DNA of 64,000 nt, taken from contig CAZZJO010000043.1 in the NCBI GenBank assembly GCA_964654645.1, positions 24,650 through 88,649 of the forward strand, in the 5' to 3' direction. The notes under the pieces were generated by a model. The model was not told the DNA's origin. It searched no databases and worked only from the letters and a program-made list of their open reading frames with translations. A program made the translations under genes and the position numbers. Shown piece after piece: positions 12,938 to 62,178 of this stretch; the first letter of the stretch is position 1, and every line of letters starts with the position of its first letter. This DNA is from an uncultured Verrucomicrobiota bacterium (GTDB lineage: Bacteria; Verrucomicrobiota; Verrucomicrobiia; Limisphaerales; CAZZJO01).

Positions 12938-12965
12938 AACAATTTAAAACATTTTGTATTCGCGT

Positions 12966-14215
12966 ATGTTTCACCTCACGCCTCGGGAGCGCGAAATAGT
13001 AGCATTACTTATTTTTGCCTTTACTTATGTATTGATCAGTGGGCGTCGGCTCAAAGTCATCCCTTTGAACCGACCGGCCGCTGCAGTGTTTGGTACTGCG
13101 ATGATGGTGTTTTTTGGGGTTATGACCTCAGAGGAGGTGTACCACGCTATAAATTATGACACCTTAGTATTATTGTTAGGGATGAGTTTGATTTCAGCTT
13201 ATTTGCAGCTAGGTGGATTTTTCGATTGGTTGGCTGACGCAATTCTTAGGTTCGCACGGACGCCCACCCGTCTTTTGTTTTATTTAGTGATTGCTAGTGG
13301 GGTTTTATCAGCTTTATTGGTAAACGACACCATTTGTTTCATGCTGACTCCTGTGGTAATTGCGGTTGTGGTACGAGGTGGTTTACCTTTGGTTCCATAC
13401 TTATTGGCATTAGCGATGAGTGCCAATTTGGGCAGTGTGGCCACCTTGGTAGGCAATCCCCAAAACATGATTATTGGGCAAATGTCGGGAATAAAGTTTG
13501 CACGCTTTTTATTTCAATGGCTCCAGTTGCAGTTTTGGGTTTAACGGTTGAATTTGCGGTGCTTGCTATTGGTTTTAGGGGAAAACTTCGGAGGGCCCAG
13601 ATTAAAGTCCCTCCGGCCCGTGAATATCAGTTGGATCGGCGCTTAGTTTTCCTTGCATTGGCCGTTTTAGTTTTGGTGTTTACAGGTTTTATGGCAGGTT
13701 TGAATCTTGCATGGACGGCTTTGGCCGGGGGTGCGATTGTGATGTTGTTTGGTCGTCGAGATACACATCACGTGCTTAAATTGGTTGACTGGCATCTGTT
13801 GGTGTTGTTCGCAGGGTTGTTTGCCGTTGTGGGCGGGGTAAATAGCACCGGAGCCATTTCACAGGCATTTGACTTTATCCGGCCTATATTCGGGCATGAT
13901 GAACGTGTCCAAGCGATAAACTTGACATGGTTCAGTATGCTTGGTTCTAACATATTTTCTAACGTGCCCTTTGTGCTGGTGGCGGGGCAATGGGTTCCAA
14001 ATCTTGCGAATCCTGAGCTGATGTGGAAAGTGATGGCGATGGCCACCACGTTCGCGGGAAATCTCACCATACTTGCTTCTGTGGCGAACATCATTGTGGT
14101 TGAATCAGCGCGGGGGCATGTGGAAGTGGGCTTTTGGGATTATGCTAAGTTTGGGATACCCGTTACCATCCTCACCACGGTTGTAGGATTGGCTGTTTTG
14201 TTGCTTTTAGGGTAA
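12966..14215 (+). pseudogene. ArsB/NhaD (YbiR-like) anion permease split by a single frameshift near 13506-13514; real lesion or sequencing error
   Basis: ORF 12954-13544 carries the N-half ([20 protein letters not shown]). ORF 13334-14215 carries the C-half (SNVP, TTFAGNLTILASVANIIV). One extra T in CTTTTTATTTC would join them. Confidence 0.8.
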
Positions 14216-24460: not shown

Positions 24461-24760
24461 GTCTGTTTTCTAATAATGCGAGGCGGTATTGGACTTCGGC
24501 GATTTTGCCAAGGGGAGAAATGAAAGCTCTTCCCAAAAAAATCTAATTAAGACCCAACTGCGGACGGTTTGTTTTTTACCGTAGGGCGACACCTTTTAAG
24601 CTGGTTGGTATAAGGTTGACTTGGGTAAAACCCATTTTGGCGCATCGGTTTTAATGCATTAAGTGACAGGGTCCAAAAACTAAATGGGCTGTGGCTTGTC
24701 AGGTTTGATAGGGGGTGGTGGTTGTACAGGTGCGTGTATAATAAAATGCAAGTGATTTAG

Positions 24761-32605: not shown

Positions 32606-32836
32606 TTACTGGTCAAGCACGCGGACTCTATAAAAGCTGGTTGGCAGATTCGGCTCGATCGCTAATATGTAGGCGATAGGCTCACCGGTCCCGCTTATGA
32701 TTGGTGTTACTGGTTGCCAATTTTTGGAGGTTAGGTCGCTGGTCGTTTCAATTACAAATTTTTGGCCTGGGTATGAATTCCATTGTAAGAGGATCGAAGT
32801 AGGGTCATTTGCTGAAGCGTGAATGGTTGGTGGGGA
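32606..32836 (-). other. Shared C-terminal domain, copy 2 (..LQWNS..KFVIETTSDLTSKNWQPV..SFYRV)
   Basis: Aligned by eye with the other copies. Confidence 0.65.
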
Positions 32837-35800
32837 AACTACGATGATGGTGAATGTAGTAGAGGATGAAAGTGGAGGCGTGCCATTGTCTGTGACGATT
32901 ACCGAAACGATGTTTGTTGAGGGAGCATTGTTCGGGGTCCATATAATCAATCCGGTTGTGGGGTTGATTGTCATTCCTTCTGGTGCTTCTGGTCCCAGTG
33001 AAAACGTCAGTGTTTGTGGGGGTATATCCGTATCAGTGGCCACGAGTTGAATCGTGATTGTTTGCCCAAGAATAGCAACTCGGTTAGACACGGGAGCGAT
33101 AACAGGGGCCGAGTTAGATAGGGCGTTTGGCGCTAATGGTGTAGGTGGCATGAAGTAAATGTTTGCTCCGCCGTCGGGGAATCGGCCTTGACTCACGTCC
33201 GTGATCTGCGGTCCAAAAACTACCACATCAACTGGTGTGCCTTCAGGGGTGAATAACCCTATTGCCTCTCCAGCCTTTGATAGTGCGAAGTTCACGTGAA
33301 GTTGTGGGTTATTAGTGCTATTTTGATTACTTTCTCCGTCAGCCCAAACAAGTAAGAAGCCTCCGGGTGGTATTACGTATTGTCCAGTTTCTGGTATACG
33401 GAATTTGAATGGGTTATCGAGAGTATCAGTGAGATAGTACCCCCCTAAATCAACAGCTTCTGAGCCAGCATTCCAAAGTTCAAACCAATCTTCGAAATTG
33501 CCGTCTACCGGATCGGCGAGGGTTCTGGTGTTATCAGCCATCCATTCGTTTATGAAGACTTGGATTGGAGGCGAGGCCGGGTTGTTAGATGCGCCAGCTG
33601 TTGCATAGTAAAGGTTCCGGCGGTAGAACGGTTGGCCATCAGGGATGCTGCCATGGGACCAGTTAGCGGGTACATTGTTGTACGACACGTAGTCAAGCAC
33701 CTGTGTTGAATTATTGATGACGCGGCTTAAAATAACAATGCCACTGGTTGGAGTAATTCGGAATGAGGTGTGCAGGTGATTTGTAGTTGTTTGGTTAATT
33801 TGGCCGTCACACCAAATTACTAGGAAACCGTTGGCTGGGATTGTGGCATTGGATGGGAATGCCCATTTTGTTAGGTTAGTTGTGGTATCGCTGAGGTAAA
33901 GTCCCCCTAGGGTTACAGGTGATCCGCCTAGGTTGATTATTTCAACCCAGGGATCGCGCTCATTATAGTTATCTGCAGGTCCCGTAATGTTTTCTGGCTG
34001 AACCTCATTTAACCAAATTGGTGGGAATGGAGGAAGCGTGTCGACGAGGGAGTTTTCCCAGCCCGGCGTGCATGGATAGGGTGCAGATTGAAGAACATTT
34101 GTTAGGACTGCTTCCATGCGCATGCCAAAGACTATGTCGCTGCTGTTAGCGGCGTTTTGGTGTACGCTTACGGCAATTACGTTAGTGCCAGTCACAAACA
34201 CGTTGCCGGGGATGGTGAAAGTATCGGGAGAAGTCGCGTCCCCGTTAGGAGGTATCCCGCTTGCAAGGGTTGAATTAGATACAGGTCCAGGGTTCATTCG
34301 AATGCGGGCTACCTCGGTGCCGTTGACGTAGAAGACCGCACCATCGTCAATATAAGCTGATACATTGACTGCATAGTACTTAAGTGAGTTTGTAATAACT
34401 ACGTAGGTTCGGAAGTAATATGCATGACCACTTGGCATACCGTTAGTGGCAATCCGTGGGTCTAACAAAGTGGTTTTGATCAACGGAGTAATAGCAGGAT
34501 TATTTTCATAAGCTAGCAGGCCTTGTCCCGAAGGCCATTTCGAATCATCGTAGTTCGGGCTTTGCCAAGCCACGTTGTCGAGATTTGATACCTGCATGTA
34601 TTTCCAGGTGGAGGAATGGTCCAGCAGTAAAATGTTGGTCGAGGGTGGAGTCGGTATGTTGGTGAGCAATATCCAGTTGGCTACTCGGCTATTATCTTGG
34701 TATGCGTCGATCAATTGTAATGAAGCTGCATTAGTTGGCATGGGCCATGGTGGAGCAGCTTCGTACTTAATTCGATCTACAACAACAAAATTAGTGGTGT
34801 TGGGGACTGGCCGAGAGAGGGTTAGTACAGCGCCCCGTGGTGGTATAGGAGTAGGCAAGGTGTCAAATGGTACGCGATAGATTCCGTATGTTTCATTGAA
34901 CACAAATGGGTTTTCTGCCAAGACAAGGTAGTTTTGCGGTAGCAAAACTGTGCCTGTTGGGAACACATATTGCAATTCTTCGATCCGCCATCCTGTAAGG
35001 TCAAAGGCAATGTTTGTGTGGGCGTTGTAGATTTCAATAAACCCAGCACCTAAGCGAGGGGGAGCATACATTATTTCGTTGAACACGACCCAGCCTGCTG
35101 GATCTGGTTCTTCGAAGTTATTAGTGAGGGTGATTGTGACTGTAGTATCAGGGATTTGATTGCTGTAGCGGTCGGATGCGGCAATTTCTAGCACATTGTT
35201 CGTTTTACTGACAGGGATTATCACTTGCCAGTTTGTGACGCTTGTCCAGGTTGGTTTGTAAAGGACGCCATTGACGCTGATGAAGCTAACTTGTAAGGGT
35301 GCAGTACCATTCAAAACCAATACATTGGAGGTTTGCAGCGTAATGTTGGTGGGTGAAGAAATTGTGAACATGGCTTTGGGTAGCACATTTGTTAGGTATG
35401 CAGTTCTTGTAACCAAAAAATTTTTTATTGAAGTGGGCGGTTGGACAGGGATGCCGTTAAGGACAAGGTTTTGATACCGTTCGTCCAAGATAGGTTCGTA
35501 AACTTCTGGTTTGAGCACTGTTCTGAGTGCTTCGTCAAACCCTTGCAGGTATTCCCGATGTATTTCTGGGATTGAGTTTATCATCCACGCGAGCCTTGGA
35601 TCGTGGATTGAATAGATACTGTCTGTGGGGGAGCTGCTTGATGAGCCCAAGGCAAGCTCCATATCCCAAACCCAAAGGCGCCACGGTTTATTGTCGGGTT
35701 TGTACGCGTACATATTTTTCCCGCGACTGTAGCCGTAGCTGTCCCAATTCCCACAAATGTGATTTACTACTATTGGTCTTAGGAAGTTGGGCAGGTCTAT

Positions 35801-38800
35801 CCATGTTCGGACAAGGTCTAAGTAATTTGGAGCATTGGTGGCATTTACCGCTGCGATGAAATTGGTAAATGGAGCCCAGTCATCGGGGTTACGTGTAACT
35901 CGTGGTCTCCAGTTCCAACGGTATCGTTTGGTATCAATTTCTCCGGTTGCTTTGTTAAACCGTTCAATTGTTGCTGTGGTAATTCCGTGGCTTGTGGCGG
36001 TGTCCTCAAACTCAAACCAATCCTCGATTTTTCTAAGCTGTCCATTTTCGTCGTTTGGGAAGAACTCCTTGATTGTATCGCTATTTGGTTGTTGAACGTC
36101 GTCGTAAATTGTACCCCTGGTAAGGCCGTTTACGACAACATGGACGTGTCTGCGATAGTTGTATGGTTGACCGAGTTTTCTTGCAATCCAATTTGCTGTT
36201 AGGTCGATTTGGGTAGTCCGGTCGTTATGGAAGAAATGGCCTGTGGTCACGTCGTAAGCGTTTAGTACAAAAGCCTCGGCACCTAAGAATTTTTCGTCGG
36301 GTGGGAAGTTTACTTCGTAGTCACACGCGAAGCCCAAAGGCCCATCATAGGTTGGAGTATGGAATGGGCTTCCGCTGTACATTGTGCCGACGTTGTAAAC
36401 TACACGGCAGTTGTTGTAGACAAAGGTTGCATCGATTGGGTCATTTGCATTCTTTTCACGTTGTGTCCAGAAGTTAATATTGGAGCTGGTTAACCAAAGC
36501 CTGTAGGTACCTAGGGACCCGGGTTTGGATGTTTCGCCCCAACGCACTAAACATTCCCGGGCTGGGGCAGTCGCTGGGAACGCGTTTGTTGCGTTGCGAG
36601 TGTCGATAGCGTAGATGTAGAAAGCTGCCAGGGTATTCGAAGCGCATCCGGGTATTATGCCGGTATAAATACCGTCGTTTGCAACCTCGTCGCCACCAGT
36701 GATACCGTCGTCTGACATCCGAACTTCATAGTAAGAAGTTGAGGGATCAATTCTGTACCTCAGATAGACTCCACCTACCCCGTCAGGGTCTGATACTCTT
36801 GCTGTGACTAAGACTCGCTGACCCGGGTTGGGAAGAATAGGAAGGTGTTTGACTTCGGTTATAGTGGGGCCGGCGTTAGGTATACGTCTTGAATTTGGTA
36901 AACCAGGTGTTCCACAGTTGTTTGGTACGTTAAGTTTGTAAGAGGCTTCCATCCAATTACCTTGGAGTCGGAAAACGATGTATGGTGAGCCTCGCAACCA
37001 CCGTACGGCCGCGCGAACGGTGCCTGTATTAGGAGCGTTGGTGACTACTGTCCCAGTAAGACGCGTCCAGACTTTGTTTGGACCCGTGTCGCCTCGTGCG
37101 ACTGAAACCATGTGTAATGCTTTGCTACCATTGAGACCCACACCGTCTTGGACGTAAGAGTTTCTAAGCACGCCTCCCCAGGACCAAGAATTGGTGCCGG
37201 ATTCGAACGTGCCGTTGGCTAACAAGTTAGGCCCGTTATTGTTGCGGAACTCTAAGTTATCGACGAGTGATTCTCCGGGGCCTTGTAAGAAGAACTCGAA
37301 TCGCGTAGGTGCTCCGTAGTAAGTGCCTTGATTGATCATGCTAGGTGTTTGCCCATTTTCGAGGATTTGTGTTACGTCGATTTGAGTCCATGGAGCCTTG
37401 CTACTTTCGTCACTGTCAGCCCAATTTTGGCCGATGGAGTTATCGGCAAATGGGTCGATGAGTTCTAAGGAACTACCCCACCCATCAGCCCAAATGCTCC
37501 ATTGTCCCCCCTCATTGTAGGTGACGTCGTTTACTACGACATAGAGGAAGTTGGTGCGTGGTAACCCAGCTGCATTAGTAGTGATTTGAGGTTCAGGCAT
37601 AAGTAGTATTATTCGGTCGCTGCTATTCCGGAGTCTGCCTAAGTAGTTACCAGTGAGGTTGGTCGCATTCAATTGCGGATATTTGGCTAATAAGTTTGTG
37701 AGGTTCTTGGCTACTACGAGGTATGAATCCGGCCCGATAATCGTATTTGATGGAAAAGTGAAACGTACCCCGCCCTGGATTTGCCATCCGCTTAAATCAA
37801 CTGGTTCTTGGCCACGATTGTAGAGTTCAATGTATTCGTCGTCATCAGAACCAGAGATCGGGTTATACATGATCTCATTTATGACGATTGGCCGTATGAG
37901 TGGAGAGGAATTGGGTTGTCCAGGAGTACGTGTACTAAGCTCTCGGATACAGGGATGACCGTCTGGATAACGTCCAGAGGCGATGCCTTTTGCTTGTCCG
38001 CCAAATGCGACGGCATCGAGCACACGGGTAGCATTCGAGTTGATCAGGAAGATTCGGTCGCCAGCCGCATCAAGCCCAAACCCTAGGGTGGATCTATAAA
38101 AAACTGCAAGACTGCGAGGTGGTAAGATTGTGCCCACTGGAATTTGGAATTTTAGTAGGTTGGGGTCGTCCGTAAGCCACGCCCCGGACAAATCAATAGT
38201 TTTTGTGGTGGTGTTAAATAGTTCGATGTAGTCTTCGGCAGAGGTATCGGTGTGTGCTAAGAATTCGTTTATAACTACACCTGCTGCTGGGTCGGTTGTA
38301 TAAGGGTCGAATCTACCTGGGGAGCCTCCGATAAAGCTGCTTGGACCCCAAGCACGTGGATCGTTTTCGCCGTAGGAGGGATTGCGCAGAACAAGTGAAT
38401 GACCGCTACCATCCGGTGAAACGGGCCATGGGTAGGTGGTGTCGTATTCAATTTCTAGCAACACACCTCCCAGCTCGTTTAAAAGTCGCACGGTACCCCC
38501 ATTATTGGGTAGGGAGCCTGTGTAGGGTCCTAGGCAATCAACCCCGTAAAACTGTTTAGCGGCAGTTGGATTTTTGGCGACCACCAAGAACTGGCCCGGT
38601 GCTAATTTAGTGCCTGGAGGGAATTCGTAGCTGATACTACCGGCAAGCTGGTGGCCGGTGAGATCTTCAGTGACAAGACCAGAATTCCATATTTCAATGA
38701 ATTCTAGGTCTTCACTATCTGGCCACGACCCGGGTGGGTTATACATGATTTCGGTAATGACAATGGGAGTCCGTCTGCTGGAGGGACCAGGCGGTTCGAA

Positions 38801-40723
38801 TGGGAGGAGCTGGTTAGTAACAATCACTCCAGTTGCATTGGTAAGTTCTGTGAACCGTGCAGTGATAAAGGTGTCGGGTTTACTTGCTGTGACTGCTAGG
38901 CCGACTTGAATCGCTTCCGGCATTGTTATTACAGCATTTCCTAGGAATTCCCATGTGCGTCCATTAATGCTGGCATATCCAGAGAACTCGTTCCCAGATC
39001 GCTTTAGTCGAAGCCACGTGTATGGGAAGTTTGGCGCAAAATAGCCACTCATGTTTGCAAAGCCTCCTTGATATGCACGCCACTGGAAATGGCATCCGAC
39101 ATGGGAAGGGGTGGCGAAAGTTGCAGCAAACACTGCGTTAGACTGTAATCCTGCGCGAGCCATTAATCCTGCCCTAGTCCATATTTCCCCGAACTCTAAC
39201 AAATTGACCCGTATTTGTAGGTCGAAGTCGTTGGTGACCGTGCGCCATAAGAAAATAAATTGATCGTTTGTGTTTCCGATGCCTTCTCCTGAAGCGGTAA
39301 TTTCAAACCCGGAGGGGATTGGTTGAAACTCCCCATTTGTGATTGCAAAGCCGATCGGGGTGAACATGTAAGGTGAGGCGATGAACTTAACGGTGGAACC
39401 TGGGATAATTAGGTTTCGAGCTGCGGCAAGGTCACGCACTCCGGATACCGTAAGTGTATATGTGATGCCCTCTGTTTGTGGAGCTGTATGGAGTAAGATT
39501 GCCGAATTTGTTTCATAGAATGAGGCTGCGATTACAGGTAACTGGCCATTTGTGCTAGTTATTTGATAATTGACTATGTTGGTGGCAGTTGTAGGTTCTA
39601 AGCCTTCTGAGAAATGTACTATTACTCCGGTTGGGAAAACGCTAATAGCCCGCAAGAGTACCGGTCCATTTGTATCAGGCAAAACCGTCAGAATAGCGTT
39701 ACTTGATATGGCCCATTTTACCACGCCCTGATATACATTGGTTAGTCTTGCGTGGAAAACATCGTTGTTGTTTGTGAGGTAAACAATAGGGATGGTAAGC
39801 GTGGTATTGGTGGCTCCAGGAATAGGTTGGCCATTTCGATACCACTGAATTGTGATCGGTCTTCGTCCAATTGGGTAGAGGCTAAAGGTTGCTGAGGCCA
39901 GTTCCGTTACAATGCAATTGGTCGGCTGTCTATAAACTTCTACAGGACCATCCAGAGCGCAAATGTCGGGTCCTAATTGGTAGCTTATAGCGATTTCCTC
40001 GGGAGTGAGAATACCGTCGTAAATCCGAAATTCGTGAATGGACCCTTTAAAATAGGGATCCCACACCCATTGAGATCGGCCTAACCAGTTATTGACGGTA
40101 TATCCTAGCATGGTTGGGTTGTGTGTCATTGAAGGATTTTCACCTACCAGTTGGCCGTCGACGTACAGTCGCCCAATACGATTTCCTGCATCAATTGTAA
40201 ACACGACATGGGCAGGCCGTCCGATTGGCAAACGGGAACCCGGCCACTCCACAACTTGTTCGTTACCGCTACCTCCAACGGTTATTGCTGCGCGGAGTAC
40301 GCCGCCCCCGCTTTGCGGGGTTATAAAGACATAGTTTGTACCTTGGTTGGGATTGTTTTCCCCGCCCGTGCTAAAGCCAAAATCGAAGATCCGCGCCCAA
40401 GTTCCGCTGCCTTCGTCTGTTACCCAGGCCTCAAAGGTGATGTTGGATCGTGTGGCTATTATGCCATTTGGTAGATCTACATAGGCTGAAGACCCATTTA
40501 GTACGACGCTGCCGTTTGCAATTGAGGCCCCACCCATGAGTGTGCCATGGGCATTCCCCACCGAGTCTGAGGCATCTGATGTGAATGAGTATCTATTCAC
40601 TATCTCGGCCGTTAGTGCAGAGACACTGAGTGTTAGCATTGCAGTGAATTTTAGACAGGCAATTAGACTTCGGGCGAGTCGCGGTTTGGATTTTGGTCTC
40701 ATAGTTTGGCGCTTTATCAGCAT
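32606..40723 (-). CDS. 2705-aa exported protein: LamG, Ig, about 6 lamin-tail domains, CotH-like kinase, Ig and C-terminal SFYR domain
   Basis: Signal peptide. Six (I/V)x(I/F/L)(N/T)E..(Y/A)NP-type lamin-tail starts. CotH motifs GNWDSYG, KNMYAY and WDMELALG (about 35640-35750). GMTINPTTGLIIWTP. Confidence 0.85.
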   Translation of the reverse strand: MLIKRQTMRPKSKPRLARSLIACLKFTAMLTLSVSALTAEIVNRYSFTSDASDSVGNAHGTLMGGASIANGSVVLNGSSAYVDLPNGIIATRSNITFEAWVTDEGSGTWARIFDFGFSTGGENNPNQGTNYVFITPQSGGGVLRAAITVGGSGNEQVVEWPGSRLPIGRPAHVVFTIDAGNRIGRLYVDGQLVGENPSMTHNPTMLGYTVNNWLGRSQWVWDPYFKGSIHEFRIYDGILTPEEIAISYQLGPDICALDGPVEVYRQPTNCIVTELASATFSLYPIGRRPITIQWYRNGQPIPGATNTTLTIPIVYLTNNNDVFHARLTNVYQGVVKWAISSNAILTVLPDTNGPVLLRAISVFPTGVIVHFSEGLEPTTATNIVNYQITSTNGQLPVIAASFYETNSAILLHTAPQTEGITYTLTVSGVRDLAAARNLIIPGSTVKFIASPYMFTPIGFAITNGEFQPIPSGFEITASGEGIGNTNDQFIFLWRTVTNDFDLQIRVNLLEFGEIWTRAGLMARAGLQSNAVFAATFATPSHVGCHFQWRAYQGGFANMSGYFAPNFPYTWLRLKRSGNEFSGYASINGRTWEFLGNAVITMPEAIQVGLAVTASKPDTFITARFTELTNATGVIVTNQLLPFEPPGPSSRRTPIVITEIMYNPPGSWPDSEDLEFIEIWNSGLVTEDLTGHQLAGSISYEFPPGTKLAPGQFLVVAKNPTAAKQFYGVDCLGPYTGSLPNNGGTVRLLNELGGVLLEIEYDTTYPWPVSPDGSGHSLVLRNPSYGENDPRAWGPSSFIGGSPGRFDPYTTDPAAGVVINEFLAHTDTSAEDYIELFNTTTKTIDLSGAWLTDDPNLLKFQIPVGTILPPRSLAVFYRSTLGFGLDAAGDRIFLINSNATRVLDAVAFGGQAKGIASGRYPDGHPCIRELSTRTPGQPNSSPLIRPIVINEIMYNPISGSDDDEYIELYNRGQEPVDLSGWQIQGGVRFTFPSNTIIGPDSYLVVAKNLTNLLAKYPQLNATNLTGNYLGRLRNSSDRIILLMPEPQITTNAAGLPRTNFLYVVVNDVTYNEGGQWSIWADGWGSSLELIDPFADNSIGQNWADSDESSKAPWTQIDVTQILENGQTPSMINQGTYYGAPTRFEFFLQGPGESLVDNLEFRNNNGPNLLANGTFESGTNSWSWGGVLRNSYVQDGVGLNGSKALHMVSVARGDTGPNKVWTRLTGTVVTNAPNTGTVRAAVRWLRGSPYIVFRLQGNWMEASYKLNVPNNCGTPGLPNSRRIPNAGPTITEVKHLPILPNPGQRVLVTARVSDPDGVGGVYLRYRIDPSTSYYEVRMSDDGITGGDEVANDGIYTGIIPGCASNTLAAFYIYAIDTRNATNAFPATAPARECLVRWGETSKPGSLGTYRLWLTSSNINFWTQREKNANDPIDATFVYNNCRVVYNVGTMYSGSPFHTPTYDGPLGFACDYEVNFPPDEKFLGAEAFVLNAYDVTTGHFFHNDRTTQIDLTANWIARKLGQPYNYRRHVHVVVNGLTRGTIYDDVQQPNSDTIKEFFPNDENGQLRKIEDWFEFEDTATSHGITTATIERFNKATGEIDTKRYRWNWRPRVTRNPDDWAPFTNFIAAVNATNAPNYLDLVRTWIDLPNFLRPIVVNHICGNWDSYGYSRGKNMYAYKPDNKPWRLWVWDMELALGSSSSSPTDSIYSIHDPRLAWMINSIPEIHREYLQGFDEALRTVLKPEVYEPILDERYQNLVLNGIPVQPPTSIKNFLVTRTAYLTNVLPKAMFTISSPTNITLQTSNVLVLNGTAPLQVSFISVNGVLYKPTWTSVTNWQVIIPVSKTNNVLEIAASDRYSNQIPDTTVTITLTNNFEEPDPAGWVVFNEIMYAPPRLGAGFIEIYNAHTNIAFDLTGWRIEELQYVFPTGTVLLPQNYLVLAENPFVFNETYGIYRVPFDTLPTPIPPRGAVLTLSRPVPNTTNFVVVDRIKYEAAPPWPMPTNAASLQLIDAYQDNSRVANWILLTNIPTPPSTNILLLDHSSTWKYMQVSNLDNVAWQSPNYDDSKWPSGQGLLAYENNPAITPLIKTTLLDPRIATNGMPSGHAYYFRTYVVITNSLKYYAVNVSAYIDDGAVFYVNGTEVARIRMNPGPVSNSTLASGIPPNGDATSPDTFTIPGNVFVTGTNVIAVSVHQNAANSSDIVFGMRMEAVLTNVLQSAPYPCTPGWENSLVDTLPPFPPIWLNEVQPENITGPADNYNERDPWVEIINLGGSPVTLGGLYLSDTTTNLTKWAFPSNATIPANGFLVIWCDGQINQTTTNHLHTSFRITPTSGIVILSRVINNSTQVLDYVSYNNVPANWSHGSIPDGQPFYRRNLYYATAGASNNPASPPIQVFINEWMADNTRTLADPVDGNFEDWFELWNAGSEAVDLGGYYLTDTLDNPFKFRIPETGQYVIPPGGFLLVWADGESNQNSTNNPQLHVNFALSKAGEAIGLFTPEGTPVDVVVFGPQITDVSQGRFPDGGANIYFMPPTPLAPNALSNSAPVIAPVSNRVAILGQTITIQLVATDTDIPPQTLTFSLGPEAPEGMTINPTTGLIIWTPNNAPSTNIVSVIVTDNGTPPLSSSTTFTIIVVSPPTIHASANDPTSILLQWNSYPGQKFVIETTSDLTSKNWQPVTPIISGTGEPIAYILAIEPNLPTSFYRVRVLDQ

Positions 40724-52076: not shown

Positions 52077-52150
52077 TGCCCGATGGTGTAACGGTAGCAC
52101 AGCAGACTCTGGATCTGCGTGTCTTGGTTCGAATCCAAGTCGGGCAGCCA
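52077..52150 (+). tRNA. tRNA-Gln(CTG), CCA encoded, antisense within the nuo cluster
   Basis: TGCCCGATGGTGTAACGGTAGCACAGCAGACTCTGGATCTGCGTGTCTTGGTTCGAATCCAAGTCGGGCAGCCA forms a full cloverleaf with anticodon CTG. Confidence 0.97.
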
Positions 52151-54591: not shown

Positions 54592-55095
54592 TTAGCTTTC
54601 AATTTGGCGCCGGAAGAGAGGTTGTGTTTGGATTTTTTGCTGGAGTTGTATAAGTGCCTGAAGGATTGCTTCTGGTCTAGGGGGGCATCCAGCAATGTAC
54701 AAGTCAACCGGTATAATGCGGTCTACGCCTTGTAATACTGAGTACGACCTGAACATTCCTCCTGTGCATGCACAGGCACCCATGGCAATGACCCATTTAG
54801 GTTCCGTCATTTGTTCGTACAAGGTTTTAATTATGGGCGCCATTTTGTAAGTAACAGTACCTGCAACAATCATCACATCTGCTTGGCGGGGGCTAAACCG
54901 CATTATTTCTGATCCAAATCTTGCGAGGTCAAAACGTGCGCCACCGCTTGCCATAAGTTCGATGGCACAGCATGAAGTCCCAGCCGGTAACGGCCAAATA
55001 GAGTATTTCCTGAACCAGTTTATCAATGCTTCCAGCCTGGTCAGCAGCACCGTACCATCGTAAATACCAGTTCCGGCTTTGCAACTTCTCTGCAT
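54592..55095 (-). CDS. nuoB: NADH:quinone oxidoreductase subunit B
   Basis: SCCAIE, RFG, SPRQAD, MGACA and GCPPRPE motifs. ATG 55095 preferred (ORF track 55140). Confidence 0.95.
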
Positions 55096-55352: not shown

Positions 55353-56312
55353 TTAAGTGTGAGTGTTTGATTTTTCGTAGTGAGTTTGGTGAGCCAGGCG
55401 TGTGGCAACAAATAGACTCAAACCGTATACGAGAAGGGTGCCAAGAACACCTGCTAGAATTGTTCCGAGTAACCCAAGGTTAACATCCCCGAGTTTTATA
55501 TTGTAGTCTTGCGCCGGGGCAGGGAATATAGGCTTATTAGACGCTTTTTCAATAAATCCGAAGTTGTGGGCTACGCGCTCAAGACCGTCAGGCCAACCAC
55601 ATGCCACCGGCGTGCCTATAATCACAAGGCCGATCACAGCAGCGAATCCGAACCCAATTGCATGTCGTGCTGGTGTTTGAGAAGGTTTTTCTTGTAGATT
55701 TAGCAGGTGGGGGAAAAGCCTATGCAGAGTAGCTACAAGTAAAGCTGAGATTACCCCCTCGCCAAGCCCGATTATTGCATGAATGCCCATCATGATTGGG
55801 AAAACCAGATTACTTTTAACGGTGCCTGAGATTTTTAGTTCTGCTGCGCAGGCAAAAGCGGCTGCTACAGTACTTGCCCAGCCCCCGAAGCAAACGCCTG
55901 CGTACATGCCGAGTGGATCACCTAAAATTTTTCTTAGCTTTTTGGCGAGGAAGTAACCTCCCGTGGGGGCAATGATTGCCATGTTAATGATATTTGCGCC
56001 AAGGGCGGTTACCCCACCATCCGCAAACATAAACGTTTGTGCTACCAAGACTGTGGTCATGATTAAGATTGCGGGTGGAAGCCCCAGCACGGTTGCCATT
56101 AATGTGGCACCGAGTAAGTGACCAGAGGTGCCTTTGGCTACAGGGAAGTTTATCATTTGCGCGGCAAAGACAAACGCGGCGCCCAAACCAATAAGCGGTA
56201 CAGTGCGTGGATGAACCCGAAGTTTGACAAAGGTAGGTATGACTACAGCAGCGGCTAAAATTCCCGTGCCCACAGCCGTTTTGATGTCTAAGAAACCATC
56301 GGGTATGTGCAT
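55353..56312 (-). CDS. cbiM: CbiM/NikM ECF-type Ni/Co S component fused to a PDGLE (NikN) domain
   Basis: N-terminal MHIPDGFL, AQMINFP..GTSGH, GG.TALGAN and H..IG.GE motifs, with C-terminal WPDGLERVA. Confidence 0.92.
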   Translation of the reverse strand: MHIPDGFLDIKTAVGTGILAAAVVIPTFVKLRVHPRTVPLIGLGAAFVFAAQMINFPVAKGTSGHLLGATLMATVLGLPPAILIMTTVLVAQTFMFADGGVTALGANIINMAIIAPTGGYFLAKKLRKILGDPLGMYAGVCFGGWASTVAAAFACAAELKISGTVKSNLVFPIMMGIHAIIGLGEGVISALLVATLHRLFPHLLNLQEKPSQTPARHAIGFGFAAVIGLVIIGTPVACGWPDGLERVAHNFGFIEKASNKPIFPAPAQDYNIKLGDVNLGLLGTILAGVLGTLLVYGLSLFVATRLAHQTHYEKSNTHT

Positions 56313-56322
56313 AACCAGTGGC

Positions 56323-57837
56323 TTAGTTCAAATGGTTTTGATTATTTGTGATCTCAAACTCGAGTTGTTCTTCAAAGATGTTTTTACGATCGAGGGAAAG
56401 CCAAGTTTCCAGGGAGATTTTTCTTAACGTGTGGAAATATTCGGGTGAGTTTGTGCCATATAAGGCTGCGGCTTTGTTGATTTTGTCTTGAATTTCTTTC
56501 AAAGGTCCCGGCTTGGGTTTCAGTATGAGTTTTTTCCCTTTTGCGTGGAATATAGCTATGGGTTGAGGCTTGTCAGCAGGGTGGATTGTGATCGTACCTC
56601 GGCCGAGACTTGCCCCAGTTGAGAATTGGATACCATCGTTTAGACAGCTGATAGGTGGGTTTGTGCTTGCAAGCGTTTCCACGTAAATAGAATCTCGGGG
56701 TACCCCAAGTATTTCTCGAGCTCGCAAACCCATCTTCACTCCAAGTATAGAGTACAATCCTAGGTGTCCATGCATCTCGGTGGCCATGACACCGAGTGCC
56801 CATTCCTCAACTCCATGCCGGAGAATGATCTGCTGTACATATGGGGCGACGTCGGGCTTATAGAACTCCGGCTCGGAGGGGAACCGAGATAGAAGGACCA
56901 TGTTGAGCATTCCTTCCTGTAGAATATCGAGATATGTGTTTGATGCTTTGGCGGTGTCGAGACCAGTTACCATCGTGACGTTTGAACATGTTGTGACGTG
57001 AGTTGGAAGCGCAATCGCAGGTTCATGCATAAGCAGCACTACCGCATCATCCCAGGCCCGGAAATGTCCAGATGCTACTAGGGATTTGACTCGTGGATGG
57101 GAATGGATTTGAAGAATGAGTGATGCGCCGGGCGAGTTGATAGATTTGAGAGATTCGAAGAAGTTGCTTGTTAGTACTAGGGTAAACTGCGGTAGCAAAC
57201 TCACGCACGTAATCGGAATGCCCGATGCAAATGCTTTTTTAGCTGCTTCAAGGTCTTGGGCTGTGTTCCATCCTTTTGGTTCCGTATCCGGAGGCGTGCC
57301 ATAATAGTAAACCCTCGAGATCATGTGTTTTAAATTGGGATATCGGCTTAGAAATTCGGCAAGATTTGACATTGGTCCTAAACAAACCCAGGTCACAGGT
57401 CTTGAAGAAGTGGCTATTGTATTGGAAAGAACCACGTGTGCAGGTTGAATATTAATTTGTGCTGGGAGCAGTAGTTCAGTCCAACCCAAGGTCCGCGACC
57501 ATGCCGACCATACGGGGTATGGTTGGTTAAGCTTATTGCCCTGGCCGACCGGAATGTTTGCTTTGTTCATAGCAGCAAGTATTTTGAGAACGTTCGTGAC
57601 ACCTATTTCGGAGGGGGTTGAACCGTCAGAAGTCACAATTGCCCTAACATCGCAATTTGGATCCTGCAATATGAGTATAATGGCGCGAGCATCATCCAAC
57701 GCCATGTCAGTATCAATAACAAGGGGCGCTGACATTTCATGAGCGATTACCTGAAATGAGAACACAACAGCAACTATTACCAGGTGTGAAAGCTTGTTTG
57801 CGGGTGCAATGGTAGTATTACTTAATGCTGGCACCAT
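56323..57837 (-). CDS. Exported nucleoside-hydrolase-fold protein fused to a C-terminal FmdE/FwdE domain
   Basis: Signal peptide, then IDTDMALDD, LGPMSNLA and WN..QDLEAA (IU-NH fold). C-terminal HGHLG..S..GVKMG and SCLNDGIQ.STGASLG.G.I (FmdE). ATG 57837 preferred (ORF track 57867). Confidence 0.8.
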   Translation of the reverse strand: MVPALSNTTIAPANKLSHLVIVAVVFSFQVIAHEMSAPLVIDTDMALDDARAIILILQDPNCDVRAIVTSDGSTPSEIGVTNVLKILAAMNKANIPVGQGNKLNQPYPVWSAWSRTLGWTELLLPAQINIQPAHVVLSNTIATSSRPVTWVCLGPMSNLAEFLSRYPNLKHMISRVYYYGTPPDTEPKGWNTAQDLEAAKKAFASGIPITCVSLLPQFTLVLTSNFFESLKSINSPGASLILQIHSHPRVKSLVASGHFRAWDDAVVLLMHEPAIALPTHVTTCSNVTMVTGLDTAKASNTYLDILQEGMLNMVLLSRFPSEPEFYKPDVAPYVQQIILRHGVEEWALGVMATEMHGHLGLYSILGVKMGLRAREILGVPRDSIYVETLASTNPPISCLNDGIQFSTGASLGRGTITIHPADKPQPIAIFHAKGKKLILKPKPGPLKEIQDKINKAAALYGTNSPEYFHTLRKISLETWLSLDRKNIFEEQLEFEITNNQNHLN

Positions 57838-57870
57838 AATAAATCGTGCTTTACAGAAGCTTTTCATATG

Positions 57871-57898
57871 GTATTAATGACATCAGAAAGCGTAATAC
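57871..57898. promoter_or_regulatory. Candidate NikR-type operator GTATTA-N16-TAATAC
   Basis: Perfect 6-bp inverted half-sites at 57871-57876 and 57893-57898 with a 16-nt spacer, upstream of a nikMN-type gene. The E. coli NikR operator is GTATGA-N16-TCATAC. Confidence 0.6.
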
Positions 57899-57899
57899 T

Positions 57900-59048
57900 A
57901 TGAAGCGACTCAGGTCAAGTTCAGTCAGATTGGCGTGTTTTGCGTTTGCAAGCCTTGTTGCTGTAAGTACGCCTGCTACAACAAATTGTCAAATAAGGTT
58001 TGTGCGGCACTGGGATTTGCAGGCTGTGACTGAAACCGGCACCAGTGCGTGGGCCGGATCATACCCGTTTACGATAATTGGTGTTCTTTTGACTGATCCA
58101 GATGAGATGTTGGATTCCACTCCGAACTTTCAGCCGGCAAGCTCGAATAACATGGGCGGTCAATGGCAGATGGTTATCCAAGCGTTGCCGCCAGATCGTG
58201 GCGGCACGTTTTTGTGGATGGGCCAAAATTACGCAATTCGGCGACCACCCTATGACGATGCCTTCAGCTATACTGATGAAGAATGGGTAGCTGAGATAAA
58301 TAGATTGAATCATGATCCATATACTGGGCATGCGTTCCGGAAAGGCGATTTAGTCGCTGTTACAGCAAACGCGAGCTTGTTTTACGGTGGCAAACGCAAC
58401 GTGAATGAGGCGCACCGGAAGGAACCAGAGTATGATTTTAACATTGTTTTACTTGCAACGAATTACGGGCTTCCCGAGCCGGAGGTAATTACATTGGCCT
58501 CTTTGGTTAGGCCTGACGACGGAAATCCGGCCACTAGTGAGGATATATTTGACCCCACGCGAATGAGTGGAGGGGAGTATTGGCAAGGGATGCGAGTCCG
58601 GATAAATGGATTAAAGTTAGTCACCACGAATGGTTGGGATCCAACTCTTTCTTGGAGTCAGCGGGTGTGTATTGTTACGGATGGTGAGAATAGATTTTTT
58701 AGAGTTCGGCATCCTAGGTATTCGTTGGGACCCGCTCCAACCAACTGGTTCGATGCCATAGGGATTCTGAATCAAGAGAGTGGATCAGGTATCCAGGGAA
58801 CAAATGGATACGAGTTGTTTATCCAAGAAGTATTGCCAGCGGAGGAACCGCGGCTCAAAGTAGAACAGGCTGTTGTGGTTAGTTGGCCCTCCTCATTGAG
58901 TAATTACAGATTGCTATCGGCAGAATCGCCCGTGTCCACCAATTGGGTTCCAGTGACTAACAAACCCGTTCTCATAGGAGATACCTTAAATGTGCTTTGC
59001 ACTCTAAATAATACACAACGGTTTTTCCGTCTTGAACGGATACGGTAG
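57900..59048 (+). CDS. Exported hypothetical protein with a probable tandem OB-fold-like region and a C-terminal RFFR domain
   Basis: Signal peptide after ATG 57900 (ORF track 57846). PEPEVITLASL..GEYWQGMRVRINGL and FDAIGIL resemble OB-fold modules of extracellular nucleases (by eye). Confidence 0.6.
   Translation: MKRLRSSSVRLACFAFASLVAVSTPATTNCQIRFVRHWDLQAVTETGTSAWAGSYPFTIIGVLLTDPDEMLDSTPNFQPASSNNMGGQWQMVIQALPPDRGGTFLWMGQNYAIRRPPYDDAFSYTDEEWVAEINRLNHDPYTGHAFRKGDLVAVTANASLFYGGKRNVNEAHRKEPEYDFNIVLLATNYGLPEPEVITLASLVRPDDGNPATSEDIFDPTRMSGGEYWQGMRVRINGLKLVTTNGWDPTLSWSQRVCIVTDGENRFFRVRHPRYSLGPAPTNWFDAIGILNQESGSGIQGTNGYELFIQEVLPAEEPRLKVEQAVVVSWPSSLSNYRLLSAESPVSTNWVPVTNKPVLIGDTLNVLCTLNNTQRFFRLERIR
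58842..59048 (+). other. Shared C-terminal domain, copy 3 (..VVSWPS..NYRLLSAES..TNWVPV..RFFRL)
   Basis: Aligned by eye with the other copies. Confidence 0.65.
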
Positions 59049-59135
59049 AGACGCCGCATCGATAGCATAGTGCACAGGGTCGTAAAAGAGCCGAGGAGTC
59101 AGAAAAATGGGGGGCGGGTAGGAAGCACTGTTTTG

Positions 59136-59786
59136 ATGATGCTCGCCCCCCGTATCTTTAGTTGGGGGTTTACTCTGGTGGAGTTATTGGTGGTAATTGG
59201 GGTTATTGGCTTGCTGGCAGGGTTGATGCTACCTGTAATCCGACACGTAGCTGAAAAAAGTAAGGTAGTGGCCGTCCATTCGGATTTGTATCAGATAGGC
59301 TTAGCCTTACACGTGTATGCGGATGACCATGGTGGACGTGTTCCTCCAGTGCGTGTCAATTGCAACAATGATTTGCGGGATCATTGGTGTCAACTACCGC
59401 CCGAGTTAGCTGCAGGCAACTATCTCCCTACAGGCATAGAAGCCGGTCGTGAAGTGGCATTTTTTGATCGCTTTAACCCCGGTTTTACATACAAATACGC
59501 AGCCCCTGGGCCAATGCTGCTTAACAACGAGCCAATAGGCAACTACGCTTTATGGATACCCACCAGTTTCCCTAACTTGGAAAGCACAAATGGACGGTAC
59601 TTTGAGACACCGTCAGATAGCCCAGTAAAATGGGTGATTTGGAGTGTCGGTCCACGCCCCAACAGTCCAAAGAGTACTAGCAAATATGCCCCTATGAGTT
59701 CGACCACGTGGTATAAACGTGTGGGTGACTCAGGCGTGATTATCCGGTATGCCACACGGGATGGAATCCAGTTTAAGAGTCCTTAG
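59136..59786 (+). CDS. Prepilin-type N-methylation domain protein (GspG-like pseudopilin)
   Basis: G-FTLVELLVVIGVIGLLAGLMLP cleavage/methylation motif and C-terminal IWSVGP. ATG 59136 preferred (ORF track 59070). Confidence 0.85.
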   Translation: MMLAPRIFSWGFTLVELLVVIGVIGLLAGLMLPVIRHVAEKSKVVAVHSDLYQIGLALHVYADDHGGRVPPVRVNCNNDLRDHWCQLPPELAAGNYLPTGIEAGREVAFFDRFNPGFTYKYAAPGPMLLNNEPIGNYALWIPTSFPNLESTNGRYFETPSDSPVKWVIWSVGPRPNSPKSTSKYAPMSSTTWYKRVGDSGVIIRYATRDGIQFKSP

Positions 59787-59941: not shown

Positions 59942-59977
59942 TCAACCCCGCAACTATTCCAATAGTTGCGAGGTTGA
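59942..59977. terminator. Long hairpin between convergent genes, probable bidirectional intrinsic terminator
   Basis: TCAACCCCGCAACTATT-CC-AATAGTTGCGAGGTTGA has 17-nt arms with one mismatch (G-U on the minus strand). It is followed by ATTTTGT on + and TATTTT on -. Confidence 0.7.
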
Positions 59978-60039: not shown

Positions 60040-60243
60040 CTATTGGTCTAGCGGAGTCCACATCAGCCGGAAAAACCGCGTCTGAGAATCAATCCGGTTG
60101 GTGTATGGGCTCGTTGCATTTGTTACTCTGGTGTAAGGACCTAGCACGTTTGTGGCGGTGTAAAGTGAGAATCTTGGCTCAGTCCATTGCAGCACTACGT
60201 TATCGCCCTGGCGCTGTAGATGTAGTGGCACGGGAGCGGGTGG
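60040..60243 (-). other. Shared C-terminal domain, copy 4 (..VVLQWT..FSLYTATNV.GPYTRVTNA..RFFRL)
   Basis: Aligned by eye with the other copies. Confidence 0.6.
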
Positions 60244-62178
60244 TTCGACTGGCAAGTCTATAACGGCTATGTAGAGGTTGCTTACGATAAACTGGGATGC
60301 TGAGCTTTGTGCGCTGGCAACTCTTATAGCGAATGCGTCGAACCTGTGGAACGGAAAGTTGGTTTCTACTCCTACCACAGTCCAGTTAGTGCCACCGCCT
60401 ATGATGGAATTTGTAATGCGGACCATGTTTTTTGCGATGCGGCTGATAGTAAGCCGATTTGTGTAAAACACGTTTTCCTGGAAGGCGGGGGCACCCAGAA
60501 GGCCCGCTGGTCCAGCAGTAATTGATACGAAATCGCCTATTGTGCCCATTAAGTTAGCTGAATCGAGTGCTGCCCTATAGTAAAGCCCGATTGGACTGTT
60601 TATGGAGAATACTTTACCAAAGTCGATATTCACCATGAATCCATTGACCATGGTGCCGTTCCCACCGCTACCACTGAACCCACTTGCGGTTGGTCGAGTT
60701 GCGCCATCGGCATAGTTAAATAGCCCAAGCCTTAGCCCACCATTGCTTTCCACGATTCCATTTGCTTGGAAGACAAACTCAGTAACTAGCCCTTTACCTA
60801 CGTCTAAATGAATAGGAGGAGCATCTTTGTCGGTGAAAAACGCAAGTACCAGCATTGAAGATGTCTGAGGAGGTTCTAGGACTAGATTATATCTAGTGGT
60901 TTGGTTTTCGTCGTCCCAGTAGCCATATAGGTAACGCCCCGTACCAGATGAGTAAAGCCAAGCCGCATTGGTTGTGTTAACGGGATATCCAGGTACAGTG
61001 TCACCCCATTCGTAATCTTCCCACCGTTCATCTAAAACCAAGCCGGTTGGGGTTTTAACTGCTTGTGTAACGTTGACCGTTATTATCGAGGATGTGGCCC
61101 AGCTATTGTTGCATGGGACGTTTACAAGACATCTATATCTAATCCCATTGTCAGCCAGGCTGAGAAGGGGGGTAAAGTACTTGCTTGCATATGACCCGAT
61201 GCCTCCACTTGCATTAACCCAAGTGATACCGTTGTCGCGACTTTCCTGCCAGGAATGAACACGAGCCGTGCCGCGGCTGATGACGGAGAGCATTGTAAGT
61301 GCCCCCTCAGAAATAGTTGGATTGTTTGTTGGCAGAGTAAAATCTATCGCGGCCTTCACACACGTACCTACCGGTGGAGTTACGTCTGCCCAGTTTGTTG
61401 AGAACCGGAATTCGTCAAATGTTGCATTAGCCTCCGGCCAGACATCGAGATAAAAGCGGCCAGGCCCCGTACTGCTACTGTCTTCGTATCCTTCGCTGGT
61501 AGATGCATCTGGCGGGGGAACTTCCTCTTCAGATTTCGCAAATGTGCTTGGGGGTGGGTTGACCCAGAGGTCAACAATATCATCCGACCTTGTAGCGCCA
61601 ATCATTTGTTGCCTGGCTACCACGAAAACTGTTTCCCCCACTGCTATATTTTTTGGTACCCAAACAGGGATACCATTGGATTTTGCTATTCCTAATTGGA
61701 TGTAGTTGCCGCTTAATCGCGCTTGAATGCTGAAATTTGTTGGACTGGATCCGTTCTGCCTTGTGACTACCGCGATCACCTTGCCCTGTGGATCCAAACC
61801 GCTTGTAGAGTTAAATCTGTAGAGAAATGAGAAATATAGCTTTGCTTCAGCTGAGGGTGGATACGCCCTGTTAGTTGCAAACAGGCAATAGTGGGAATGC
61901 ACATATCCCGTTCCCCCTCGTATTTCTGCTTTATCGCCAGCAGATGCTACCAGTCCAAGAGGGGTGCCATCCAAGCTGCCGCTGCCAAACTCGACAAATA
62001 CATTGGTGGCTGTACCATACCACCCTTCGTGGGCGGCAACACCGACTTGCCCAACAGGCCCGCTTTGGCTTGCCATGAACTGGCTTTCTATAGGCGGCGT
62101 TTGCCCGAGAGCTTGTAATATGAGAGTAATTCCGAAGATACCCGCAAGGCCGATTGCGTTTGGTTTCATAGTGGTCAC
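60040..62178 (-). CDS. Exported hypothetical beta-rich protein (lectin-like regions plus an Ig-like domain) with a C-terminal RFFR domain
   Basis: Signal peptide, FDEFRFSTNWADVTP, Ig-like WQESRDNG...GIRYRCLV, and ends SQTRFFRL. ATG 62169 is the likely start. Confidence 0.65.
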   Translation of the reverse strand: MTTMKPNAIGLAGIFGITLILQALGQTPPIESQFMASQSGPVGQVGVAAHEGWYGTATNVFVEFGSGSLDGTPLGLVASAGDKAEIRGGTGYVHSHYCLFATNRAYPPSAEAKLYFSFLYRFNSTSGLDPQGKVIAVVTRQNGSSPTNFSIQARLSGNYIQLGIAKSNGIPVWVPKNIAVGETVFVVARQQMIGATRSDDIVDLWVNPPPSTFAKSEEEVPPPDASTSEGYEDSSSTGPGRFYLDVWPEANATFDEFRFSTNWADVTPPVGTCVKAAIDFTLPTNNPTISEGALTMLSVISRGTARVHSWQESRDNGITWVNASGGIGSYASKYFTPLLSLADNGIRYRCLVNVPCNNSWATSSIITVNVTQAVKTPTGLVLDERWEDYEWGDTVPGYPVNTTNAAWLYSSGTGRYLYGYWDDENQTTRYNLVLEPPQTSSMLVLAFFTDKDAPPIHLDVGKGLVTEFVFQANGIVESNGGLRLGLFNYADGATRPTASGFSGSGGNGTMVNGFMVNIDFGKVFSINSPIGLYYRAALDSANLMGTIGDFVSITAGPAGLLGAPAFQENVFYTNRLTISRIAKNMVRITNSIIGGGTNWTVVGVETNFPFHRFDAFAIRVASAQSSASQFIVSNLYIAVIDLPVEPPAPVPLHLQRQGDNVVLQWTEPRFSLYTATNVLGPYTRVTNATSPYTNRIDSQTRFFRLMWTPLDQ

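Follow-up and report, generated by a model that had tools for sequence, protein, structure and literature searches.

A 64-kb window of DNA from an uncultured Verrucomicrobiota bacterium (64,000 nucleotides, positions 24,650 to 88,649 of contig CAZZJO010000043.1; "the window" is this whole stretch, and all coordinates below are counted from its first letter) contains four genes in two divergent arms that probably constitute a nickel-acquisition locus controlled by the repressor NikR. The leftward arm consists of the gene for a Nik(MN) permease (55353–56312, minus strand, 319 residues) and, upstream of it, the gene for a fusion of a nucleoside hydrolase-like domain with an FmdE domain (56323–57867, minus strand, 514 residues). 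The rightward arm consists of a gene for an exported protein of 382 residues, here called ORF3 (57900–59048, plus strand), and a pilin-like gene (59070–59786, plus strand). In the original prediction, which was made from the letters of the window, the four genes formed one candidate divergon for nickel acquisition. Comparison with related loci bears out those parts of this interpretation that comparative genomics can address, with a different division of the locus. Judging by gene order and by the positions of the boxes, the conserved unit is a NikR box together with ORF3 and the pilin gene, not the four-gene divergon, and the left arm is, on the same evidence, one of at least three interchangeable importers. 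Sequence comparison establishes the identities of the genes, their conserved order, the NikR boxes and, beside the system in relatives, nikR genes encoding an intact nickel site.

Conserved gene order

The comparison covered 62 species-level loci, namely 59 from a scan of one genome per species, the window itself and two loci from metagenomes. The 59 scanned loci belong almost throughout to Verrucomicrobiota, with a few from Planctomycetota, and the related loci come mostly from metagenome-assembled genomes. The pilin gene follows ORF3 in 55 of the 62, and nikR lies within 10 kb of ORF3 in 31, often directly after the pilin gene. A hydrolase-FmdE gene is adjacent to ORF3 in 18 loci, and it is in these that the two arms occur together, so that the lack of co-occurrence in other genomes, which would have spoken against the original prediction, is not what is seen; NikMN is found near ORF3 in 11 loci, and NikQ and NikO in four or five (L003, L014, L018 and L055). 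All four genes of the window are joined in one relative, L003, as a single operon in the order nikR, ORF3, pilin, fusion, nikMN, nikQ and nikO. In another, L006, the fusion gene is divergent from the ORF3–pilin pair and is followed by a gene for a permease of a further kind (DsbD_2/HupE-UreJ-like). The pair is followed in 21 of the 62 loci by a set of genes assigned with Pfam to ZnuA, an ATP-binding cassette (ABC) ATPase and an ABC-3 permease, and importers of the energy-coupling factor (ECF) type and of the Znu type occur together in one locus. In many loci the pair is on the same strand as the importer genes, either NikMNQO or ZnuABC-like, and stands directly ahead of them with tight spacing. 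It is from the frequencies of ORF3, pilin gene and box across the 62 loci that the right arm with its box emerges as the conserved unit.

The Znu-type set lies between the pair and nikR in L015, L016, L020, L022–L024, L031, L034, L036, L037 and L039 (for example at L024:11721–14692). It has the same place in L043, L044, L048, L050, L052–L054 and L064, and is partial at the end of the locus in L040 and L051. This set is a candidate for a nickel-specific member of the zinc/manganese ABC importer family.

NikR-type boxes between the arms

Two NikR-type boxes are found in the region where the arms diverge. Box B (57871–57898) is a 28-bp inverted repeat, GTATTAA-N14-GTAATAC, which contains a perfect GTATTA-N16-TAATAC and ends 2 nt ahead of the ATG of ORF3. 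Box A (57815–57842, GTATTAC-N14-ATAATAA) is a weaker copy with one mismatch to this pattern, lies 58–85 nt upstream of the same ATG and, when the fusion gene is read at its longest, sits inside its opening codons. With at most one mismatch allowed, GTATTA-N16-TAATAC has three matches in the window against 0.10 expected, and two of the three sit in the inter-arm promoter region. The architecture of box B, with half-sites of 6–7 bp and a spacer of 13–14 (or 16) bp, agrees with that of published NikR operators, which are inverted repeats of 27–28 bp with the consensus GTGTTAC-N13/14-GTAACAC in delta-proteobacteria and GTATGAT-N13/14-ATCATAC in enterobacteria (PMC545781). In L003 a repeat of this form, GTATTAC-N14-GTAACAC, stands just before the start codon of nikR itself, and the motif recurs where the ORF3 homologue begins.

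The same box recurs at the same place in the related loci. Strict matches in the 62 loci (1.05 Mb) number 55, of which 45 lie within 380 bp upstream of ORF3; these upstream zones make up 2.2 % of the scanned DNA, which corresponds to a 200-fold enrichment, and most of the other strict matches precede either nikR or a displaced pilin gene. With a weight matrix, 57 of the 62 loci have a site upstream of ORF3 that exceeds the 99.99 % level of the background, a count that is partly circular. The circularity is removed when the matrix is trained on other species only, leaving the window out, and box B then ranks first (19.1 bits) and box A second (13.3 bits) among the approximately 128,000 positions of the 64-kb window. 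In the close relatives L065–L067, whose ORF3 is 97 % identical to that of the window, box B has three substitutions, all in the 14-nt spacer and none in the half-sites, and the half-site GTATTAC of box A is identical. The strict search was empty for the promoter of L001, where the matrix finds a degenerate site. The palindrome that the original prediction had pointed out between the arms is, on these comparisons, a conserved NikR-type operator, putative as to binding by NikR.

The third match in the window (54711–54738) falls within nuoB. The matrix trained on other species gives it 6.9 bits, and with so low a score it is probably a chance occurrence.

Both boxes overlap the promoter and start region, a position that fits repression when nickel is plentiful, and the presence of two boxes in so short a space suggests that one nickel-sensing repressor could serve both arms. 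The NikR homologues encoded next to the system in relatives contain the ribbon-helix-helix and NikR_C domains. The high-affinity nickel site of NikR is made up of H76, H87, H89 and C95, and by comparison with the E. coli sequence all four are retained in 31 of 32 of these homologues. Control by a B12 or NiCo riboswitch was considered and rejected because the Rfam scans show none: in the window Rfam finds two tRNAs only, and in six related loci there was nothing at the gathering threshold and nothing meaningful at E ≤ 1.

The arms are separated by a gap whose length varies with the choice of start codons. The value of 62 bp given originally is matched by the gene calls on the contig of L065, and the distance between the first ATG codons of the two arms (57867 and 57900) is 32 bp. 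The fusion may start at 57867 or further in; the listed open reading frame of ORF3 opens at GTG 57846, and ATG 57900 agrees with the homologues. The two genes of the left arm are indeed separated by 10 nt (56313–56322).

The exported protein ORF3

ORF3 begins with a signal peptide and has no match in Pfam or NCBIfam. A word-index search returned 961 homologues, none of them named or carrying a Pfam domain, and an exhaustive profile search gave a family of 166 clusters at 50 % identity (E ≤ 1e-30); a profile search of the PDB sequences found no relative. The AlphaFold2 model, with a predicted local distance difference test score (pLDDT) of 86.9, features two β-barrel, OB (oligonucleotide/oligosaccharide-binding)-like domains followed by a C-terminal β-sandwich tail. 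The best Foldseek matches of this model are SSB, RPA, Teb1, HIN and DUF3299, all of them weak, with none at E ≤ 0.001 and with low TM-scores. The protein had been described as exported and OB-fold-like; the export signal is borne out, and the OB-fold label rests on these weak structural matches.

In 71 of the 120 homologues listed, the residues E-T-H come right after the small residue at the predicted signal-peptidase cleavage site, so that an X-X-His N-terminus of the amino-terminal copper- and nickel-binding (ATCUN) type is predicted for those proteins. Distant relatives of ORF3 end in PEP-CTERM, dockerin or PATR modules, an indication that members of the family are surface-located or secreted. 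ORF3 would presumably capture nickel outside the inner membrane. In one further protein, P0363, an ORF3 domain is combined with a CorA/MopE-like copper-binding region.

A tail domain shared between ORF3 and a neighbouring 712-residue protein, which was part of the original prediction, finds no statistical support. A hidden Markov model (HMM) of the ORF3 tail misses the 712-residue protein, BLASTP between the two is not significant, and among the open reading frames of the window the model otherwise only grazes the C-terminus of a 2705-residue protein (i-E 0.039). The tail module occurs as six to eight tandem copies in other proteins (P0422 and P0497), and since these tandem repeats are in unrelated proteins, the tail is, by sequence comparison, a generic module.

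The pilin-like partner

Translation of the pilin gene probably begins at ATG 59136, so that the leader reads MMLAPRIFSWG|FTLVE and the prepilin-type N-terminus SWG|FTLVELLVV; no other gene product in the window has an N-terminus of this type. The traits of a class III leader are present, namely short length, Gly or Ala at position −1, Phe at +1, Glu at +5 and a hydrophobic helix α1, and E38 is invariant in the family. The N-terminus matches N_methyl, and the TIGR02532 domain is found with a score of 18.1 against a cut-off of 16.3. Against the GspG equivalog TIGR01710, on the other hand, the protein scores 35.6 bits where 88.85 are required, and the match is confined to residues 33–87. The AlphaFold2 model (pLDDT 86) has an N-terminal helix of about 50 residues (36–86) and a β head that contains several conserved proline-rich motifs. 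In both a PDB profile search and a structure search, solely the N-terminal helix matches solved pilins and GspG, and the head has no significant structural match. The description of the protein as a GspG-like pseudopilin therefore holds for the N-terminal helix and fails for the head and for the whole-protein GspG score. That the pseudopilin is a dedicated one is well supported: it belongs to a specific orthologous family (495 homologues of 55–72 % identity) tied to ORF3 in the 55 loci mentioned above, and is not a generic pilin-like paralogue.

The hydrolase-FmdE fusion

Both domains proposed for the fusion are found by Pfam, IU_nuc_hydro at 1.6e-31 and FmdE at 3.7e-16 (59.8 bits against a cut-off of 22.9, over the full length of the profile), and the hydrophobic N-terminus agrees with export. 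At least 239 homologues have this architecture, in Verrucomicrobiota, Desulfobacterota, Aminicenantes, Abyssubacteria and others. Residue conservation was assessed in 32 aligned sequences. The signal peptide ends in a small residue (A|HE); the His directly behind it is invariant and, given this position, is predicted to begin the mature protein. In the hydrolase domain, the motif DxDxxxDD reads DTDMALDD, with D52, D54, D58 and D59 invariant, and N201 and D273 are kept as well. The position aligned with the catalytic His of nucleoside hydrolases is occupied by a Trp, as read from the alignment, with W272 nearly invariant and D273 invariant. In E. coli RihA/RihB the catalytic His stands ahead of the last calcium-binding Asp (His239-Asp240); HMMER alignments of the fusion to RihA end before the W272-D273 region. 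Scores against the NCBIfam equivalogs are 84.7 against 382 for RihC and 82.4 against 433 for RihA, and the domain is a member of the fold but probably not of the enzyme family.

In the FmdE domain, H366, H368 and C408 are invariant and correspond to H15, H17 and C55 of B8FYU2_DESHY, and the position of C19 is occupied by Gly. The solved FmdE protein has a mixed Zn/Ni site with four ligands, and most FmdE genes adjoin metal transporters (PMC2954224); three of these four ligands are retained in the fusion. We infer that the fusion acts as a periplasmic nickel handler.

Outside Verrucomicrobiota, the fusion gene comes directly after the gene for a TonB-dependent receptor in six of the seven loci examined, and genes for CbiM, CbiQ and DUF4198 are found near it. 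In the Aminicenantes locus a perfect GTGCTAC-N13-GTAGCAC stands 20 nt before the receptor gene. No gene for a TonB-dependent receptor, with plug and barrel, was found in or beside the locus in the window. The principal argument that the ORF3–pilin pair serves a step outside the inner membrane is drawn from this arrangement, in which the fusion is accompanied elsewhere by a receptor and in Verrucomicrobiota by the pair, and to judge from gene order ORF3 and the pilin seem to hold the place of the outer-membrane receptor of other phyla.

The sole locus outside Verrucomicrobiota without a receptor is L073 (5004–5777 and 7775–12152), where the fusion gene follows that of a TauE-family permease and is near two genes for glyoxalase-fold proteins. 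Upstream of the receptor gene that precedes the fusion, a long hairpin with the conserved arms CCAYGAA ... TTCRTGG and a T-run is present in three distant lineages (L005:5480–5720, L069:4800–5030 and L071:4800–5040). It matches no Rfam family and might serve as an attenuator, as a riboswitch platform of unknown type or simply as a terminator.

The Nik(MN) permease

The permease of the left arm, identified as NikMN in the original prediction, is the S component of an ECF-type Ni/Co transporter fused to an N-like domain. It contains a CbiM domain (PF01891; 2.6e-50, 171.6 bits against a cut-off of 23.1, profile positions 1–204 of 205) and a C-terminal PDGLE domain (1.5e-06, 28.4 bits against 27), and matches to CbiN are weak. 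The NCBIfam CbiM models match it below their equivalog cut-offs (best 155 against 219). The N-terminus reads MHIPDG. The nickel ligands of TtNikM2, Met1 and His2 at the extracytoplasmic N-terminus and His67, form a planar metal site (PMC3945884); Met1-His2 and His65 (in GTSGH) of the window protein correspond to them, in a comparison made by eye and not by structural alignment. Natural Nik(MN) fusions are known, and the M and N proteins alone give basal uptake.

Proposed mechanism and alternative explanations

In the mechanism that we propose, a NikR encoded elsewhere in the genome would repress the locus. At high nickel it would occupy both boxes and switch both divergent promoters off, as their position and conservation suggest, and at low nickel ORF3 and the pilin would be produced together. 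These two proteins would form a front end by which nickel is captured beyond the inner membrane and brought to the periplasm, a job done elsewhere by TonB-dependent receptors. The pilin might tether or export ORF3 by way of a machine resembling type II secretion or a type IV pilus, or it might anchor ORF3 to the inner membrane. In the periplasm the fusion, which keeps a His-His-Cys site, a DxDxxxDD metal site and the predicted N-terminal His, would take up nickel at its His-rich sites and hand it to Nik(MN). The permease would then import it, either unaided and at a basal rate or together with a NikQ and NikO whose genes lie elsewhere. We infer metal binding by ORF3, the pilin and the fusion, their cellular location, the direction of transfer, and repression in place of activation.

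Several observations weigh against this account. Statements of function rest throughout on sequence, predicted structure and gene order. As the original prediction had already noted, neither nikR nor a gene for a nickel enzyme is present in the 64-kb window; nikQ and nikO were not found there either, and tblastn with the NikQ and NikO of L003 gave no match in it. In 23 of the 62 loci the pair has neither type of importer nearby. Conserved His and Cys residues are scarce both in ORF3 (H172, invariant, and H37, H271 and C257, nearly so) and in the pilin head (H105, C98 and C107, all invariant), and the structure searches give no significant match for either. The ORF3 of the window lacks the X-X-His N-terminus and reads FVRH, and for this reason the ATCUN-type N-terminus of its homologues is not used as evidence here. 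In the hydrolase domain a Trp replaces the catalytic His. In 22 of 35 members of the pilin family, residue −1 of the cleavage site is Ala and not Gly, which makes processing by a prepilin peptidase uncertain.

It is against this background that we suggest, tentatively and with some doubt, that in Verrucomicrobiota and some Planctomycetota nickel crosses the outer membrane without a TonB-dependent receptor, and that the pilin and its cargo ORF3 form a pseudopilus device for capture or export that feeds whatever inner-membrane importer a given species possesses. The same nickel regulon could instead include a pilin that is a bitopic inner-membrane anchor and never forms a fibre, the pilin and a soluble ORF3 then being a periplasmic nickel-binding accessory that functionally corresponds to NikK/NikL or a substrate-binding protein, with no step at the cell surface. 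Alanine at −1, a poor residue for prepilin peptidase, is what most members of the pilin family have, the signal peptide of the window's ORF3 is an ordinary one with no motif for surface anchoring beside it, genes for secretion or pilus machinery were not found among those of the window, and the pair often stands directly ahead of importer genes, all of which would suit a periplasmic accessory. We nevertheless regard that arrangement as rather unlikely, since the Znu-type loci already encode ZnuA and the NikMN loci already encode the fusion, so that a third periplasmic binder would be redundant, since the matching position outside Verrucomicrobiota is taken by an outer-membrane receptor, and since the PEP-CTERM, dockerin and PATR modules of distant ORF3 relatives mark surface proteins.

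The remaining alternatives concern the metal, the purpose and the reality of the association. The substrate might be cobalt or a corrinoid, with the permease a CbiM and the hydrolase trimming a nucleoside-like moiety of the corrinoid. The best NCBIfam models are indeed named for the cobalt transporter CbiM, CbiM and NikM have a common binding mechanism, some CbiMNQO systems carry both metals, and a ribosyl ligand might in principle be a substrate for a nucleoside-hydrolase fold. The CbiM equivalog scores are nevertheless far under their cut-offs, neither the window nor any of six related loci has a cobalamin riboswitch, the boxes are of the NikR type and the adjoining regulator is a NikR with a complete high-affinity nickel site, so that uptake of cobalt or corrinoids is very unlikely. 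It is highly improbable, too, that ORF3 and the pilin are regulated by NikR for a purpose other than uptake, such as nickel sequestration or detoxification in the envelope or nickel-dependent adhesion or secretion. NikR can control genes that do not encode importers, for example a predicted hydrogenase target (PMC545781), and ORF3 has no recognisable metal-binding motif; against this, the pair is on the same strand as, close to and directly before two kinds of nickel importer (NikMNQO and ZnuABC-like), a permease of a third kind comes after the fusion in L006, and the boxes are placed over promoter and start as repression at plentiful nickel would have them. There is practically no chance that the locus is a coincidence of four unrelated genes and an accidental palindrome in an AT-rich gap. 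Inverted repeats of 6 bp can occur fortuitously, and the match in nuoB is probably an instance, but this explanation is already contradicted by the comparative data, in which the order is conserved over 62 loci, the box is enriched 200-fold and the two boxes of the window take the first and second ranks.

Relation to known systems

The literature searches found no description of the fusion, ORF3, the pilin or their joint system, in keeping with the original prediction, whose author knew of no described system of this composition. Both the permease and the operator are ordinary representatives of familiar types, and it is the ORF3–pilin front end that may be new in kind. The closest relationship on the importer side is to the NikR-repressed Nik(MN)QO transporters (PMC545781, PMC3945884), which have in common with the window a Nik(MN) fusion with Met1-His2 and a 28-bp NikR-type repeat. 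The likeness extends to nikQ and nikO, which follow in the relatives L003, L014, L018 and L055. The window differs from these transporters in that nikQ, nikO, nikR, NikK and NikL are missing and three other exported proteins are co-regulated.

In Helicobacter pylori, NikR controls a TonB-dependent nickel uptake in which FrpB4/FecA3 work with NixA or NiuBDE. There, as in the scheme proposed here, one nickel repressor governs an outer step and an inner-membrane importer, whereas the verrucomicrobial loci hold an exported double β-barrel protein and a pilin-like protein at the position of the receptor. A comparable combination of an exported OB-like protein (DUF3299, PA4066, 4HSP), a metal importer and a metal-sensing repressor is seen in the Zur-regulated operon PA4063–PA4066 of Pseudomonas aeruginosa. 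With an E-value of 0.046 the Foldseek match between PA4066 (4HSP) and ORF3 is weak and falls short of significance. In addition ORF3, with two barrels and a tail, has three times the size, and metal and regulator are different.

The FmdE domain of the fusion shares the α+β core and the H-x-H plus Cys of the FmdE family (PF02663; 2GLZ, 2GVI, 3D00; PMC2954224). Unlike the family members, it is fused to an exported hydrolase-like domain and has neither the second Cys nor a zinc-finger domain, and the fusion of the window has no link to formylmethanofuran dehydrogenase. The pilin resembles GspG pseudopilins and type IV pilins in its class III leader with Phe +1 and Glu +5, its helix of about 50 residues and its β-sheet head, and differs from them in that the head has no detectable solved relative and the gene is found with a nickel regulon and not among genes for secretion or pilus assembly. 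The nearest functional precedent for a pilin that helps in trace-metal acquisition is PilA of Synechocystis, which assists the acquisition of manganese (PMC5634550).

Nickel uptake in Verrucomicrobiota and Planctomycetota was previously undescribed, and a census of nickel and cobalt transporters in 2009 reported none in the few genomes of Verrucomicrobia and Planctomycetes then available. The locus gives a testable, nickel-linked role to three families that had none, namely ORF3, the pilin and the hydrolase-FmdE fusion, and the NikR box is clear enough for the regulon to be traced across genomes by sequence. If the pilin and ORF3 do replace a TonB-dependent receptor, this would bear on the supply of trace metals in diderm bacteria without such receptors and on the function of the large families of pilin-like genes in the Planctomycetota–Verrucomicrobiota–Chlamydiota (PVC) group. 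A pseudopilus, in particular, would be a new route for a trace metal into a diderm cell, and with it one of the many orphan pilin-like families in these phyla would have a function assigned for the first time.

Boundaries and neighbouring genes

The strong hairpin that had been proposed to close the right arm is present at 59942–59977, with a 16-bp stem and a 4-nt loop, and in a terminator scan it separates the pilin gene from the convergent gene for the 712-residue protein. It has T-rich tails on both sides. On the minus strand the stem is perfect, with one G-U pair, and on the plus strand it contains one C-A mismatch, so that the hairpin makes a better terminator for minus-strand than for plus-strand transcripts; it is probably, to judge from these features, a bidirectional terminator. 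The 712-residue protein itself (60040–62178, minus strand) is exported and has no match in Pfam, and its gene is beside the locus only in the close relatives L065–L067.

The remaining genes of the window are housekeeping genes, glycoside hydrolase genes and nuoBCDEFG. The nuo run comes directly after NikMN. Within it a tRNA gene (52077–52147, plus strand) lies between nuoF and nuoE on the opposite strand, and in the 212-bp spacer between nuoB and NikMN no open reading frame of the size of nuoA was seen. A CitMHS-type transporter is split across two overlapping frames (12954–13544 and 13334–14215) by a frameshift, as a pseudogene or through a sequencing error. The 2705-residue protein whose C-terminus is grazed by the ORF3-tail model (32606–40723, minus strand) contains six lamin-tail domains together with Laminin_G_3, CotH kinase and He_PIG domains.

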